Shown: piece after piece, positions 24,704 to 28,707 of the stretch
Numbering within the stretch: the first letter of the stretch is position 1
Layout: each line of letters begins with the position of its first letter
Assembly: GCA_025924475.1 (NCBI GenBank)
Contig: JAICIH010000001.1
Coordinates: 1,424-65,423 of the forward strand
Source of the DNA: Bryobacteraceae bacterium
GTDB taxonomy: Bacteria > Acidobacteriota > Terriglobia > Bryobacterales > Bryobacteraceae
DNA: 64,000 bases
Reading direction: 5' to 3'
The notes under the pieces: model-generated
Databases searched by the model: none
Told to the model about the DNA's origin: nothing
Seen by the model: only the letters and a program-made list of their open reading frames with translations
Translations under genes and position numbers: made by a program

Positions 24704-25519
24704 GTGAAGAAACTTTCCTGGGCGTTTGCAATTGTGCTGGCTGCGGCGGGCCTGCTGGATGCGGCCAATCCGATTCGGGTGCTGATTCTTACAGGTAATT
24801 CCGACTATTCGCATCCTTGGCGGCCAACGGTTCCGTTCTTGCGCGAGACGCTCGAAAATACCGGAAGGTTCGATGTACGAGTCGAGGAAGAACTCCGCGG
24901 CATTACCGCCGCCACATTGGCTCCTTACGATGTTCTGGTCGATTATTACTATGGTCCGCGGCTCGGAGAGGTAACCGAGAAGGCCATTGAAGACTTCGTA
25001 CGGAGCGGCAAAGGCATGGTGGCGATTCACGGCACCGACTATGGACCTTTCTTCGGACAGGCCGGCGGAAATCCGCAGGAACCGAAGCGTCGTATGGAGG
25101 GCGAGCCGTGGCTGGCATTCGAGGAGATGGTGGGAATGGACTGGAAAATCGAAAATATCGGCCACACGCGGCGGCACGTGTATCCCGTCCAATGGACCGA
25201 TAAAGAACATCCGATTGCCAAAGGGCTTCCGCCGGTGTTTTTGGCGAACGACGAACTCCATCATCGGATCGATTTGAAGCCGAATGCGCACGTCATTGCC
25301 ACGGCATACGACGATCCGGCGATTCCCGGCGGAGGAGGTGGAACAGGCAAAGACGAGCCGGTAATATGGACGGTTCCCTTCGGTCAGGGACGCGTTGTAA
25401 TGACGGTGCTGGGTCACGATCTGCTGGCGATGACGCAGCCGGGATTCATACAGGCCTTCACGCGCGCCGTCGAATGGACGGCCACCGGAGACGTGAAGCC
25501 GCCCGATCGAGCGCATTAG
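24704..25519 (+). CDS. exported ThuA-like (trehalose-utilisation domain) protein
   Basis: Likely GTG start at 24704, giving Sec signal VKKLSWAFAIVLAAAGLLDA. ThuA-like blocks: IRVLILTGNSDYSHPW, GKGMVAIHG, WTVPFGQGRVVMTVLGHD. The tracked ORF begins at 24590. Confidence 0.75.
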   Translation: MKKLSWAFAIVLAAAGLLDAANPIRVLILTGNSDYSHPWRPTVPFLRETLENTGRFDVRVEEELRGITAATLAPYDVLVDYYYGPRLGEVTEKAIEDFVRSGKGMVAIHGTDYGPFFGQAGGNPQEPKRRMEGEPWLAFEEMVGMDWKIENIGHTRRHVYPVQWTDKEHPIAKGLPPVFLANDELHHRIDLKPNAHVIATAYDDPAIPGGGGGTGKDEPVIWTVPFGQGRVVMTVLGHDLLAMTQPGFIQAFTRAVEWTATGDVKPPDRAH

Positions 25520-25520
25520 C

Positions 25521-26258
25521 GTGCGAAACACAGCGGCACTGTTCCTGTTGATTGTCTTTCCGGCGATGGCGCAATCGCGCTCCGACTCGGCGGACATCGA
25601 GCGCGGGCGCGAACTGTTCGCTTCGAACTGCGGCTTTTGTCATGGAGCGCAGGCTATGGGAACCGAGCAGGCTCCGCCGCTGGCGCGCAATCGGCTTACG
25701 GCGCAGGATCGGAATGGAGAGATTCTTGGGCCGATCATCCAAGCGGGCCGGCCGCCGCAAGGAATGCCGGCGTTCCCGTCCCTGACCGCCACGCAGATCT
25801 CGGACATTGTTTCGTTTCTTCACGCCCGGGCGCGCGAGATACGCGGGCCGCGGGTGCCGGAAGAAAGCCTTCTTATAGGAAATGCCCGCGCTGGCGAGGC
25901 ATACTTCAACGGCACCGGCAATTGTTCTAACTGTCATTCCGCTGCCGGGGACTTAAAGGGCGTCGCCAGTAAGTATTCTCCTCTTTTACTGGTGACCGCG
26001 TTTCTTACGCCTAAACCGCAAGCGATTCAAGTCAACGTGATTCAGGAGTCGGGTGCGGCTCTTTCCGGCGTATTGATCTATGCAGACGAGTTCGTGGTAT
26101 CGTTTCGCGATTCTGCGGGAGAGTATCGAAGCTTTTCCCGCGGCACACTAAAGTCGGTAAGGATAGATGATCCTCTGGCGACGCACAAACAGCAGATGGC
26201 CAGGTACTCGGATGACGATATTCACAATCTGCTTGCTTATCTGATTACGCTGAAATGA
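25521..26258 (+). CDS. dihaem c-type cytochrome, exported
   Basis: 245 aa. Signal MRNTAALFLLIVFPAMAQS. Two CxxCH motifs: CGFCH and CSNCH. Confidence 0.85.
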   Translation: MRNTAALFLLIVFPAMAQSRSDSADIERGRELFASNCGFCHGAQAMGTEQAPPLARNRLTAQDRNGEILGPIIQAGRPPQGMPAFPSLTATQISDIVSFLHARAREIRGPRVPEESLLIGNARAGEAYFNGTGNCSNCHSAAGDLKGVASKYSPLLLVTAFLTPKPQAIQVNVIQESGAALSGVLIYADEFVVSFRDSAGEYRSFSRGTLKSVRIDDPLATHKQQMARYSDDDIHNLLAYLITLK

Positions 26259-27829
26259 GCCTGCACCAATACCTCTTGTTGCCGATCTTATTGCAGTTAC
26301 TGGATCCGTCCTCATTTCATAAACCTCCTACAGACACATGGCCCACTTACAACGGGGATTATAGCGGCCAGCGGCACAGCATTTTGAAGCAGATTGATGC
26401 GGCGAATGTCCATACGTTGGGTTTAGCCTGGACGCACCGTGTGGCGATGAGCCGGATGTCGTACGCGCAGCAAGCCGATGAAGGTCATCGGCTCAAGGCG
26501 ACGCCGCTGCTGGTGAAAGGCGTTCTGTATTTCACGACTACGGATAATGTTTGGGCGATGGATGCCCGCTCCGGGCGCGAGATTTGGCATTGGTCCTGGC
26601 CCAACAATCGCGCCATTCATGTGGCAAATCACGGCCTCGGGATGTATGGGAACTGGCTCTACTATATGACTCCCGATTGCTGGCTGGTGTCGCTTCGGGC
26701 GCAGGACGGCAGCGAGCGATGGCGCGTGCAGATAGCCGATGTGAAGCAGGATTTCTTTGGCTCGATCGCGCCGCTTGTCATCGGCAATCATGTGATTGTC
26801 GCTCCTGGAAATAACGATGACATTCGCGCATTTATGGAATCACGCGATCCGGAGACCGGCGCACTGCAGTGGAAGTGGTGGGTAACCCCGGACCCCGGAC
26901 AGCCCGGTTCTGAAACGTGGACGGATGCGGAGACCATGGCAAAAGGCGGCGGCTTTCCATGGCTTTCCGGAACTTACGATCCCGAATTGAACTTATATTA
27001 CGCCGGCACGGGAAATGGTGTGCCGCCGCGAAGAGCGCCGCATCCGAACGAAAAAGGCGAGGATAGCCTTTACACCGCTTCTATTGTTGCGCTGAATCCG
27101 GACACGGGAAAACTTGTCTGGCATTTCCAGGCGACTCCGCACGACAACCACGATTGGGATGCCACGCAGACTCCTATTCTTTTCGATGGCGACTTCGGCG
27201 GGAAGAAGCGTAAACTGCTGGCGCAGGTATCGCGGAATGGCTACTTCTTTCTTCTCGACCGCCGGACCGGCGAGCATTTACTCACAACGAAATACATGCC
27301 CGAGACCAATTGGGCGAAAGGCATCGATAAATACGGACACCCGATCCCGAATTACCTGAAAGATGCGAGGCCGGAAGGCACACTCGCTTCTCCCTATGCG
27401 CTGGGCGCGACGAATTGGTGGTCTCCTACTTACGACCCGAAACGGGGCTTCATCTTTGTGAATGCTTCGCGCACATTCGCATTCCTGACGCCGGCCGGTT
27501 ATGGCCGGTTGGCGTACCCGGTGCAGTACGTCACGATGGCGATCGACTATACGACCGGGAAGGTGGTCTGGACACATGAACTGGGCGATAAGAGCGGAAA
27601 CCTGATTTCGGGGTTGCTCTCGACCGAAGGCGACTTATTGTTGGGCGGCGACACATCCGGGAATTTTCTTGCAATGGACCCGGCGACCGGTAAAACTCTT
27701 TGGCATACGAACTTAGATGAGTTTGTCACCAATGCGCCGATTACTTATGAGTTAGATGGGCGGCAGTACGTGCTGGTGGCGGCGAAAGACGCCTGGTTCG
27801 CCTTTACGCTGCCGAAAGAAGAAAAATGA
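26255..27829 (+). CDS. PQQ-dependent dehydrogenase (beta-propeller quinoprotein)
   Basis: 524 aa. WPTYNGDYSGQRHS N-terminal motif, repeated W-containing propeller blades (GVLYFTTTDNVWAMDARSGREIWHW, GKLVWHF, GKVVWTH, GKTLWHT). ATGA start/stop overlap with the cytochrome gene. Confidence 0.85.
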   Translation: MSLHQYLLLPILLQLLDPSSFHKPPTDTWPTYNGDYSGQRHSILKQIDAANVHTLGLAWTHRVAMSRMSYAQQADEGHRLKATPLLVKGVLYFTTTDNVWAMDARSGREIWHWSWPNNRAIHVANHGLGMYGNWLYYMTPDCWLVSLRAQDGSERWRVQIADVKQDFFGSIAPLVIGNHVIVAPGNNDDIRAFMESRDPETGALQWKWWVTPDPGQPGSETWTDAETMAKGGGFPWLSGTYDPELNLYYAGTGNGVPPRRAPHPNEKGEDSLYTASIVALNPDTGKLVWHFQATPHDNHDWDATQTPILFDGDFGGKKRKLLAQVSRNGYFFLLDRRTGEHLLTTKYMPETNWAKGIDKYGHPIPNYLKDARPEGTLASPYALGATNWWSPTYDPKRGFIFVNASRTFAFLTPAGYGRLAYPVQYVTMAIDYTTGKVVWTHELGDKSGNLISGLLSTEGDLLLGGDTSGNFLAMDPATGKTLWHTNLDEFVTNAPITYELDGRQYVLVAAKDAWFAFTLPKEEK

Positions 27830-28707
27830 ATGCAAAAATGACTCGCCGCGCGGCGCTGGCGCACATCTCCGCATGGATGTCCTCCGCTGTTTTCGCCGAC
27901 ACATGGCCCGGGAAGAAGAAGCTGCTGGCGATTGCGGACCCGCGCGAGTGGTACGGGCACGTGAACTATCATCACGATTCCGCATCTCACACACTGGCGA
28001 CGGTCGAACGGCTCGGCCGCGAATCGGGCTCATGGATCACAATCATGCGCACCGACATGGAATTGCTTCGCAAAGGGAAGCTGCCCGGCACAAACGCGCG
28101 GACGCTCGACGATTTCGACGGGATCTTCTATATGGGCGAGGGGCCATGGGACATCAGCGACGAGCAGAAGGCGAATCTGCTCTCCTTCGTGCACGATGAC
28201 GGTAAAGGGTTCGTCGCCGGCCACGCGGGCAATGGCGGCCATCTGCTGCTCTGGCCTGAATACGCGCAGATGATCGGCGGCAATCTGGTTTCGGAGTTTC
28301 CGACAACCGATCTGCCGGTGATTCTCGAAGACCCGAAATTTCCCGGCGTGGATGGGTTCGAGCGTGCGTTCTGGTTCAAAGATCAGTTCACGGTGGTGGG
28401 ACCGAATTTTTCCCGTGAGGTCGATCACGTAATTATGAGGCTCGACGCGAGCAAACTGGAGGAAGCAAAAGCGCGCCAGACAACGCCTTCAAAAGGCTTC
28501 GAGCGGGCTGCGGCCACGCGCCGGCCCGACGGCGACATGCCCATCGTATGGGCGAGAAAGTACGGGAAGGGGCGGGTGTGGTATTCGTCGTTCGGTCATG
28601 AGGAAACCAGTCTCGACGATCGGCGCGTGCAGAAAATGTACATTGGCGCCATTCGGTGGGCGCTCGGCTTGGTTGATGCCGATGTCAGTCCTCACCCGCT
28701 ACGCTAG
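27826..28707 (+). CDS. exported ThuA-like protein (second copy)
   Basis: 293 aa. Tat-like signal MNAKMTRRAALAHISAWMSSAVFA. ThuA-like blocks: FDGIFYMGEGPW, GKGFVAGHAG, PIVWARKYGKGRVWYSSFGHE. ATGA overlap with the PQQ gene. Confidence 0.75.
   Translation: MNAKMTRRAALAHISAWMSSAVFADTWPGKKKLLAIADPREWYGHVNYHHDSASHTLATVERLGRESGSWITIMRTDMELLRKGKLPGTNARTLDDFDGIFYMGEGPWDISDEQKANLLSFVHDDGKGFVAGHAGNGGHLLLWPEYAQMIGGNLVSEFPTTDLPVILEDPKFPGVDGFERAFWFKDQFTVVGPNFSREVDHVIMRLDASKLEEAKARQTTPSKGFERAAATRRPDGDMPIVWARKYGKGRVWYSSFGHEETSLDDRRVQKMYIGAIRWALGLVDADVSPHPLR

Follow-up and report, generated by a model that had tools for sequence, protein, structure and literature searches.

A conserved four-gene unit of a quinoprotein, a dihaem cytochrome and two exported ThuA-family proteins in a Bryobacteraceae bacterium: a candidate system for carbohydrate oxidation outside the cytoplasm

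What might a quinoprotein, a dihaem cytochrome and two exported proteins of the ThuA family accomplish together? The question is raised by four adjoining genes in a soil acidobacterium of the Bryobacteraceae (GCA_025924475.1), found within a 64-kb window of contig JAICIH010000001.1 to which all coordinates given below refer. The open reading frame (ORF) listing contains four plus-strand ORFs here, and the sequence was read directly at their junctions. The stop codon of the first gene, thuA-1 (TAG, 25517-19), is followed one base later by the GTG start codon of the cytochrome gene (25521), the cytochrome and quinoprotein genes share an ATGA overlap at 26255-58, the quinoprotein and thuA-2 genes share another at 27826-29, and thuA-2 ends with TAG at 28705-07. 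The near-zero spacing described in the first-pass annotation was confirmed exactly, in its coordinates and in all three junctions. The longest ORF of ThuA-1 begins at TTG 24590; the GTG at 24704 is preferred as start codon because the gene call of the closest relative gives 271 amino acids (aa) and because a signal peptide follows this GTG. The cassette and its presumed boundaries comprise the following features:

24411..24703, plus strand: presumed promoter and 5' region, a 293-nt untranslated gap between the stop of a twin-arginine translocation (Tat)-signal protein (24410) and GTG 24704
24704..25519, plus strand: ThuA-1, 271 aa, exported ThuA family (PF06283, 9e-31; PDB 4e5v, 3.7e-26)
25521..26258, plus strand: dihaem c-type cytochrome, 245 aa (PF13442/PF00034, ~3e-16; CGFCH and CSNCH)
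26255..27829, plus strand: quinoprotein-family eight-bladed beta-propeller dehydrogenase, 524 aa (PF01011, 9.9e-73; TIGR04528)
27826..28707, plus strand: ThuA-2, 293 aa, exported ThuA family, other subfamily (PF06283, 9.9e-27; AlphaFold2/Foldseek fold)
28730..28758, plus strand: terminator-like hairpin GCCGCGCCTGTATTGCGGC followed by a T-rich run (consensus scan, visible in the sequence)

The domains assigned in the first-pass annotation were all recovered with Pfam, namely ThuA in the first and fourth proteins (PF06283, 108.2 and 95.0 bits, respectively, against a gathering cut-off of 33.4), cytochrome c and the pyrroloquinoline quinone (PQQ) propeller, and both predicted CxxCH motifs are present in the cytochrome. 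An exact-sequence look-up with the quinoprotein of the window found no record.

Approximately 170 related loci, referred to here by L numbers, were compared overall, including two scans of 80 loci each, one anchored on ThuA-2 and covering a single genome per species, the other anchored on the quinoprotein and covering metagenome contigs. In the latter scan the cytochrome gene is located directly upstream of the quinoprotein gene in 74 of 77 loci, whatever the identity class. The presence of thuA-2 directly downstream follows the identity of the quinoprotein: it is found there in 17 of 18 loci where this identity is at least 71%, in none of five at 65-70%, two of which have an AP_endonuc_2 gene at that position, and in none of 39 at 55% or below. 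With ThuA-2 as the anchor, the cytochrome and then the quinoprotein are encoded directly upstream on the same strand in all 12 loci with a ThuA-2 of at least 59% identity and in hardly any of the 68 loci with a more distant ThuA-2-like gene, and many ThuA-2-like genes have no quinoprotein gene nearby (L019-L085). The order cytochrome, quinoprotein, ThuA is also seen in the annotated neighbourhoods of Paracidobacterium acidisoli (L001) and of a metagenome-assembled genome (MAG; L002). The cytochrome-quinoprotein pair is a generic module of a very large family, and it is the two ThuA genes that define one orthogroup. ThuA-1 orthologues which accompany cassettes share 65-96% identity. The thuA-1 gene comes first, as in the window, in L008, L086, L090, L091, L092, L094, L095, L106 and L110, and last, right after thuA-2, in nine Acidobacteriaceae genome loci and in L097, L099, L101, L102 and L107; it lies on the opposite strand in L013 and 4 kb away in L002, and none occurs within the flank in L001 and L108. 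The gene set is thus conserved, and the four-gene order suggested in the first-pass annotation is strict for Bryobacteraceae-type loci but gives way to a thuA-1 placed after thuA-2 in the Acidobacteriaceae. Since the arrangement is conserved in dozens of loci from two families, chance is ruled out, and selection has evidently kept all four genes together through rearrangement. With neighbours that vary from one locus to the next, the four genes behave as a portable cassette. It is a real, conserved and uncharacterised unit. A MAG that also carries an orthologous cassette (L009) contains, in addition, a paralogous one (L015, 4523-12499) with the order cytochrome (33%), quinoprotein (43%), ThuA-1-like (26%), ThuA-2-like (59%) and TonB receptor.

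The quinoprotein matches PF01011 with 246 bits (cut-off 26.7) and passes the model TIGR04528, 'acido-empty-quinoprotein group A', with a score of 656.2 (cut-off 650) over model positions 1-493 of 493; its database relatives bear the acido-empty-quinoprotein name. A single search returned more than 7,000 relatives, and many family members are labelled 'alcohol dehydrogenase (cytochrome c)' by JGI. The best PDB matches are 1kb0 (1.1e-69) and 1kv9 (6e-67), with 1yiq (2e-63) at the end of the range, and PedH is also related. In an active-site census of 120 family members, the stacking Trp (W236), the catalytic Asp (D300), R327-N-G and N387-W are invariant, N254 (TGN) is found in 113 members and replaced by Asp in the remaining seven, and the motif H296-D297-x-H299-D300-W-D302 is conserved. 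The roles of W236, N254, D300, R327 and N387 are presumed from the structures of methanol and alcohol dehydrogenases (MDH and ADH). The residue D302 is likewise invariant (120/120) and aligns with the second Asp of the D-F-D motif of PedH (6zcv/6zcw), whereas the calcium-dependent enzymes 1kb0, 1kv9 and 1yiq have Thr at this position (D-Y/F-T). Two Asp residues are essential for lanthanide binding, 6ZCW being the lanthanide-dependent PedH (PMC11996626), and the second-Asp rule for lanthanide enzymes is also described in PMC10875860. Because most PQQ contacts and an invariant lanthanide-type Asp have been kept, despite the missing Cys-Cys pair and remodelled metal site discussed below, the use of PQQ is likely, and the quinoprotein, though divergent, is probably a working PQQ enzyme whose altered metal site is of the lanthanide type.

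Both haem-binding motifs of the cytochrome, CGFCH in the N-terminal and CSNCH in the C-terminal domain, are found in all 15 orthologues examined. PF13442 and PF00034 match residues 24-101 (~3e-16), and this N-terminal haem domain resembles CcoP of cbb3 oxidase, QcrC of the bc1 complex and the haem domain of the quinohaemoprotein ADH 1yiq (1.4e-6), while the C-terminal residues 120-242 match TIGR02603 with 43.6 bits (2.6e-11), below its cut-off of 68.15. On account of the translational coupling of the two genes and their adjacency in nearly all loci, the cytochrome is the obvious presumed electron acceptor of the quinoprotein.

ThuA-1 and ThuA-2 share just 26% identity over 53 aa only and are thus members of two subfamilies; an origin by recent duplication was rejected on the same grounds. 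ThuA-1 matches the PDB entry 4e5v, a 'putative ThuA-like protein'. A sequence search of the PDB with ThuA-2 gave no match; its AlphaFold2 model (predicted local distance difference test score 81.7) has 4jqs, 4pxy, 4e5v and 1t0b as top Foldseek hits (2e-11 to 5e-8), all of them ThuA-like. Four His, four Asp, a GKG motif and GxGRV...GH are invariant in both subfamilies, the invariant ThuA-2 residues being H55, D77, D98, G126-K-G, H133, D169, D186, H201, G247-x-G-R-V and G257-H258. The shared His/Asp constellation looks like a catalytic or metal site.

ThuA had been introduced in the first-pass annotation as the cytoplasmic partner of ThuB. This proved too narrow, as exported ThuA-family proteins are the rule in the clade, extracytoplasmic fusions exist, and ThuAB is listed among the periplasmic, cytochrome c-dependent 3-ketoglycoside dehydrogenases in PMC8121099. 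According to that article, citing Ampomah 2013, ThuAB forms 3-keto-disaccharides. A ThuA-domain gene also accompanies a GMC oxidoreductase gene in a deoxynojirimycin-degradation cluster (PMC11494336), and in a Croceicoccus cluster a ThuA gene is found with a TonB receptor, TIM-barrel genes, DUF6379, GH3, Gfo/Idh/MocA and a sugar-phosphate isomerase. A single 1,740-aa protein of Haloferax gibbonsii plasmid pHG1 (WP_050460176.1; L172, 5359-10581) combines ThuA with DUF7133/TIGR02604, HEAT and CBM_4_9 domains and a plastocyanin/azurin (cupredoxin) domain. The recurrent partners of ThuA thus include dehydrogenases from at least three cofactor classes, carbohydrate-binding functions and electron carriers that work outside the cytoplasm. 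The Haloferax protein is named 'PVC-type heme-binding CxxCH protein' by NCBI, but a copper domain replaces the haem, and the name looks inaccurate. The absence of a ThuB-type oxidoreductase, as claimed for this locus at the outset, was borne out: tblastn with Gfo/Idh/MocA probes gave no match anywhere in the 64-kb window, and no such gene was found in the cassette of any orthologous locus.

Export was judged by hydrophobicity, by motif inspection of the N-termini and by comparison of orthologues. BamA-like and TamB-like proteins are encoded in the window, and the organism therefore has an outer membrane and a periplasm. ThuA-1 has a Sec-type signal (MKKLSWAFAIVLAAAGLLDA|AN), as do all its orthologues, and the cytochrome and all its orthologues have classical Sec-type N-termini. 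ThuA-2 carries a twin-arginine-type signal (MNAKMTRRAALAHISAWMSSAVFA|D) with T-R-R, a weakly hydrophobic core and VFA|D. It did not score with the NCBIfam Tat model; the RR pair is kept in close orthologues, and the Acidobacteriaceae orthologues have textbook RRxFLKG or RR(E/D)(L/F)(L/F)KG motifs. A subgroup of ThuA-2 orthologues (P0136-P0140 in the alignment of P0121-P0159) has Sec-type signals instead. The export of ThuA-2 is thus conserved but its route is not, and this switch between Tat and Sec suggests that there is no strict need for folding or cofactor loading in the cytoplasm. The signal of the quinoprotein (MSLHQYLLLPILLQ|LLDP) is short and uncharged as a result of an in-frame deletion of 18 nt relative to L090; the region encoding the signal (26255-26300) has this deletion relative to L106 as well and shows a change of Arg4 to His. 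An assembly error was considered and rejected, since L095, 96% identical and from an independent sample, shares the short form but keeps Arg4, and the short signal is hence a natural variant. Other quinoprotein orthologues have normal signals ending just before the mature LLDP...DTWPTYNGDY, and export signals are conserved among the orthologues of all four proteins. The earlier view that all four carry export signals therefore holds for ThuA-1, the cytochrome and ThuA-2, whose export is well supported, while that of the quinoprotein, with its marginal signal, is plausible.

The nature of the substrate is suggested, only indirectly, by the sister clade and by the partners of ThuA described above, among them the carbohydrate-binding module and dehydrogenase-like domain of the Haloferax fusion. 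A recently described periplasmic route of glycoside breakdown consists of oxidation at C3, cleavage by elimination and hydration, its modules being interchangeable between organisms, and its lyases and hydratases, the 3-keto-glucoside lyases/hydratases, belong to the AP_endonuc_2 ('sugar phosphate isomerase'-type) and DUF1080 (PF06439) families. The genes of sister-clade quinoproteins (65-68% identity) adjoin AP_endonuc_2 and PF06439 genes (L004/L005/L119 and L114/L115). These stand in place of ThuA in L004 (65% quinoprotein identity), while in L088 a ThuA-2-like gene occurs together with AP_endonuc_2 and PQQ genes. As the sister-clade pairs adjoin these lyase families, carbohydrate oxidation, with ThuA acting on the oxidised sugar, is suggested for the cassette as well. 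Genes for GH57 or GH92 proteins are also found next to the cassette in close relatives. The probable role of the cassette is thus the extracytoplasmic oxidation of a carbohydrate, with respiration receiving the electrons. As to the respiration-coupled periplasmic glycoside oxidation first proposed, the gene context is best read as a periplasmic, cytochrome-coupled oxidation of a carbohydrate, but a glycoside, in preference to a free sugar or polyol, is not established.

The proposed mechanism would proceed as follows. The propeller would bind PQQ, possibly scavenged, and probably a lanthanide or other metal at its remodelled site, and would oxidise a carbohydrate hydroxyl of a glycoside, free sugar or polyol to give a keto-sugar in the periplasm. 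The dihaem cytochrome would take up the electrons from the propeller and feed them into the respiratory chain, so that the re-oxidation of bound nicotinamide in the periplasm, which is the problem of the periplasmic route, would be avoided. ThuA-1 and ThuA-2 would be enzymes with the oxidised sugar, or a precursor of it, as substrate, their genes taking the position of the lyase and hydratase genes of the sister clade. In the Acidobacteriaceae the product would probably be imported and reduced by the aldo-keto reductase, Zn-dependent dehydrogenase and short-chain dehydrogenase/reductase (SDR) of cytoplasmic type encoded nearby. The chances that this explanation as a whole, an extracytoplasmic quinoprotein-cytochrome-ThuA carbohydrate dehydrogenase system, is correct are evenly balanced. 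A far more specific version, in which the quinoprotein is a PQQ- and lanthanide-dependent periplasmic glycoside (C3) dehydrogenase and the ThuA pair are the long-missing keto-sugar-processing enzymes, counterparts of AP_endonuc_2/DUF1080, is doubtful.

Several observations weigh against such a system. The quinoprotein fails the model for PQQ-dependent methanol/ethanol dehydrogenases (TIGR03075; 343.4, cut-off 480.05). The vicinal Cys-Cys pair of 1kb0, 1kv9 and PedH aligns with A120-I121, and none of the 120 family members has Cys at these columns, G/A-I being found instead; the next residue is His in the window and its two closest relatives and Arg in the other 117. The counterpart of the metal-ligand Glu in GGxEx(G)VRG is either N187 or D188, according to the alignment used, and the former Glu loop is Asp/Asn-rich, reading GNNDDIRAF in the window and GGD(S/D)DVPGY in most of the family. 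An invariant Lys replaces the residue that corresponds to Glu55 in MDH. No pqq genes were found in the 64-kb window, and the signal of the quinoprotein lacks a basic residue. The ThuA-like PDB entries are unannotated structural-genomics structures, and to our knowledge the reaction of this widespread family has never been defined. The association with lyase genes comes from few independent sister-clade loci (L114/L115 and L004/L005/L119). In the window, tblastn with aldo-keto reductase, Zn-dependent alcohol dehydrogenase, SDR, Gfo/Idh/MocA, AP_endonuc_2 and PF06439 probes gave no match, and the idea that downstream enzymes are hidden elsewhere in the window was rejected on this basis. Polyphenol-type neighbours, namely DyP peroxidases, a multicopper oxidase and a tannase, occur in some loci (L086, 2686-5287; L091, 3945-7516; L087, 3367-5796; L002, 15921-17439). 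Finally, no biochemical reports on the four proteins or their close relatives were found in the literature searched. The claim of the first-pass annotation that PQQ replaces the chemistry of nicotinamide adenine dinucleotide (NAD) is accordingly unproven, in view of the membership of the 'acido-empty' family, the altered cofactor and metal site and the lack of pqq genes in the window.

Three other explanations can be set against the carbohydrate dehydrogenase system. The cytochrome and quinoprotein may form a generic lanthanide- or calcium-dependent alcohol or aldehyde dehydrogenase, acting for instance on volatile alcohols or on alcohols derived from lignin and polyphenols, with the ThuA proteins as accessories unrelated to keto-sugars. 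The nearest solved relatives, which are type II quinohaemoprotein ADHs and PedH, would fit such an enzyme, as would the JGI label of many family members, the dozens of paralogous cytochrome-quinoprotein loci without a sugar gene nearby and the DyP peroxidase, multicopper oxidase and tannase genes close to some cassettes. The latter neighbours may hint at phenolic glycoside substrates, but equally suit a non-sugar alcohol. This explanation is nevertheless rather unlikely, given that the ThuA genes are specific to the orthogroup and were retained through rearrangement, that ThuA is tied, in the literature and the loci examined, only to the oxidation of sugars or sugar mimics and to carbohydrate-binding modules, that the sister clade adjoins 3-keto-glycoside lyase families, and that the active-site lining is unlike that of the paralogues (GNNDDIRAF vs GGDSDVPGY).

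The ThuA proteins might, alternatively, be structural or maturation subunits involved in metal or cofactor loading, stabilisation or docking, and not transform a sugar at all. Their class I glutamine-amidotransferase-like fold is non-catalytic in GH42, GH164 and GH5 glycosidases, ThuAB is treated as a single dehydrogenase in PMC8121099, the Haloferax ThuA domain is fused in cis to a dehydrogenase-like domain, and the conserved His/Asp cluster could handle metal. Such a role is unlikely, however, when two divergent subfamilies are both retained and many ThuA-2-like genes stand alone with no quinoprotein, and the Tat/Sec switch of ThuA-2 speaks against an obligatory co-folded complex. The propeller itself could be truly 'empty', binding no PQQ but another cofactor, or serving as a binding or scaffold protein with the chemistry left to ThuA and the cytochrome. 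The curated family name, the passing of TIGR04528 with the failing of TIGR03075, the absence of a Cys-Cys pair and of the usual Glu as metal ligand, and a window devoid of pqq genes are all in keeping with this. The name denotes host genomes without PQQ synthesis genes, and in that sense counts for a propeller without PQQ; on our reading, 'empty' would refer to the missing biosynthesis genes and a dead pocket would not be meant. Five canonical PQQ/metal contacts and the catalytic Asp kept across 120 members are hard to explain without a cofactor, and a near-universal adjacent cytochrome implies an output of electrons. Genomes without PQQ synthesis that bear XoxF may import PQQ, for which TonB-dependent transporters have been suggested (PMC10875860), and the two-Asp PQQ dehydrogenase expansions of acidobacteria are read as lanthanide enzymes (PMC11996626), so that an empty propeller is quite improbable.

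The carbohydrate dehydrogenase system can also be compared with characterised ones. The type II quinohaemoprotein ADHs (1kb0, 1kv9 and 1yiq) are periplasmic and combine, like the cassette, an eight-bladed propeller with a class I haem acceptor domain. In these enzymes, however, a single haem domain is fused to the propeller, where the cassette encodes a separate dihaem cytochrome; they have Cys-Cys, the Glu ligand and Thr at +2, where the cassette quinoprotein has no Cys pair, an Asn/Asp loop and Asp at +2; and they have no ThuA partners, where the cassette has two. The glucoside 3-dehydrogenase LacABC, the catalytic subunit of which is a GMC flavoprotein, shares no sequence relationship with the cassette and has no ThuA proteins. 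As a system for periplasmic sugar oxidation via a c-type cytochrome (PMC8121099), it is the closest functional analogue of the proposed mechanism. The lanthanide-dependent PQQ dehydrogenases (XoxF/XoxG and PedH, 6zcw) resemble the cassette in their D-x-D motif and adjacent dedicated c-type cytochrome, and the predicted lanthanide-PQQ dehydrogenases are, like the cassette family, greatly expanded in Acidobacteria, where very large repertoires have been described (PMC11996626). The cassette differs from XoxF and PedH in the absence of Glu, Cys-Cys and XoxJ and in the two haems of its cytochrome, and its lanthanide dependence is predicted from sequence. No report of a ThuA association with lanthanide-PQQ dehydrogenases was found in the literature searched.

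In the 3-keto-glycoside pathway of Bacteroides and Alistipes (BT2156-BT2160; AL1-AL3), the exported, modular logic is that of the cassette model, but the oxidant is a Tat-exported Gfo-like enzyme with bound nicotinamide and not a quinoprotein with a cytochrome. The lyase families of this pathway adjoin the sister-clade quinoproteins, whereas the window has ThuA genes at that position and no AP_endonuc_2 or PF06439. In the ThuAB system of rhizobia and agrobacteria, ThuA is partnered by ThuB, a Gfo/Idh/MocA NAD(P) enzyme, in contrast to the quinoprotein partner of the cassette, the ThuA proteins of which are exported and belong to two subfamilies. Common to both is a ThuA-family protein with a sugar dehydrogenase, the product of ThuAB being a 3-keto-disaccharide according to PMC8121099. 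A tblastn search of a plasmid collection with ThuA-1 matched 48 records, all below 60% identity; Sinorhizobium and Agrobacterium are not among the ten most frequent genera in the matches listed, with 23 of the 48 records outside that listing. The PVC-type heme-binding CxxCH proteins (TIGR02604 and TIGR02603) similarly unite ThuA, an extracytoplasmic dehydrogenase-like domain and a small electron carrier, together with carbohydrate-binding modules, as in the Haloferax protein, but as single-chain fusions with DUF7133/TIGR02604 and no PQQ-ADH propeller, where the cassette has four separate proteins. No match to the TIGR02604/DUF7133 domain was found in any of the four.

Periplasmic quinoprotein-cytochrome dehydrogenases, cytochrome-linked glucoside 3-dehydrogenases and pairings of ThuA with dehydrogenases are each already known separately. 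The expansion of lanthanide-PQQ dehydrogenases in acidobacteria has been noted computationally, and the combination of ThuA with dehydrogenase-like and haem domains has been annotated but not studied. What appears to be new is the specific link, conserved across loci, between a single 'empty quinoprotein' orthogroup, a dihaem cytochrome and exported ThuA proteins of two subfamilies. Searches for acido-empty-quinoprotein, for ThuA with cytochrome c and PQQ and for Solibacter quinoproteins found no relevant paper in the literature searched, in agreement with the earlier statement that this arrangement has no characterised function. We know of no substrate for the expanded quinoproteins. Up to 70 predicted lanthanide-PQQ dehydrogenase genes each have been reported in marine genomes (PMC11996626). 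The cassette offers a testable entry to three matters, namely the substrate, cofactor and metal of the 'empty' quinoproteins, the activity of ThuA, and a possible direct coupling of sugar oxidation outside the cytoplasm to respiration in soil bacteria, and it is tied via the sister clade to the oxidise-then-eliminate route of glycoside breakdown. Were the reading as a C3-dehydrogenase with ThuA processing to be true, it would provide the first function for ThuA and for one 'empty quinoprotein' orthogroup; should the enzyme prove to be a common alcohol dehydrogenase and the other genes bystanders, the result would be a routine one. The cassette is of value above all as a workable means of finding out what ThuA and the expanded acidobacterial quinoproteins do.

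The genes upstream of the cassette in the window are as follows, the last three forming a minus-strand unit:

19734-22919, plus strand: TonB-dependent receptor, inside a variable block of approximately 5 kb (19663-24686)
22944-24410: Tat-signal protein with a weak GHL10 match, inside the same block
16187-19570, minus strand: TonB-dependent receptor, divergent from the cassette
14932-16176, minus strand: 414-aa protein with no Pfam match
12755-14935, minus strand: GHL6 'hypothetical glycosyl hydrolase 6' protein

The block 19663-24686 is missing from L090, one of the closest relatives (89% nucleotide identity), in which the cassette abuts the minus-strand TonB receptor, but present in L106 (94% identical), which is syntenic with the window from the receptor through GH57. 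It is thus polymorphic among close relatives, a strain-level indel. Since homology to L090 resumes only at 24687, most of the 293-nt gap before thuA-1 belongs to this block. A scan found no match to the sigma-70 consensus near the cassette, this consensus being uninformative for an acidobacterium, and an Rfam search of the whole window yielded only a tRNA, with no riboswitch or known RNA in the gap. Other upstream genes, including those for DyP peroxidases, are found in L086 and L091, where GH92 and two Gfo/Idh/MocA genes lie downstream, while L087 has a multicopper oxidase gene upstream and a gene of no assigned family and a TonB receptor gene downstream. The multicopper oxidase encoded beside the cassette is a three-domain enzyme, found with a cytochrome c554-like protein. 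The upstream TonB receptor and Tat-signal protein were considered as members of the unit and rejected, in view of the L090 indel and the different flanks in L086 and L091; the placement of the unit downstream of these two genes in the first-pass annotation is accordingly true of the window strain, but they are not conserved partners.

On the downstream side, the terminator-like hairpin and T-run are located between the stop codon of thuA-2 (28707) and the probable start codon (ATG 28831) of a gene for a GH57 and DUF3536 protein (28831-31284), which directly follows the cassette. The hairpin is likely the 3' end of the transcription unit, a consensus match alone being no proof. The position of the GH57 gene is conserved in L093, L094 and L106 (89-97% identity), but not in L086, L091 or the Acidobacteriaceae loci. 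In the Acidobacteriaceae a secreted protein of approximately 347 aa, with 63-65% identity between loci, is encoded right after thuA-1 (L006, L007, L009, L011, L012, L014, L017 at ~9750-10750, L097, L101, L102 and L107). It has no homologue in the window and may be a fifth component of the cassette in this family. A Zn-dependent alcohol/polyol dehydrogenase (73-79% identity between loci) and an aldo-keto reductase (71-77%) are encoded in the Acidobacteriaceae flanks (L001, L002, L007-L017 and L096-L111) and are missing from the window and the Bryobacteraceae-type loci, while some Acidobacteriaceae loci add an SDR, a DMT transporter and a sugar-type regulator. Pfam searches with the 414-aa and a 430-aa protein of the window and with the secreted 347-aa protein gave no match. 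An orthologue of the GHL6 protein, with 62% identity, is encoded near a distant ThuA-2-like gene in L041. The window also contains three large genes for permeases of the MacB_PCD/FtsX type, at 1495-4092, 31332-33812 and 47182-48873.

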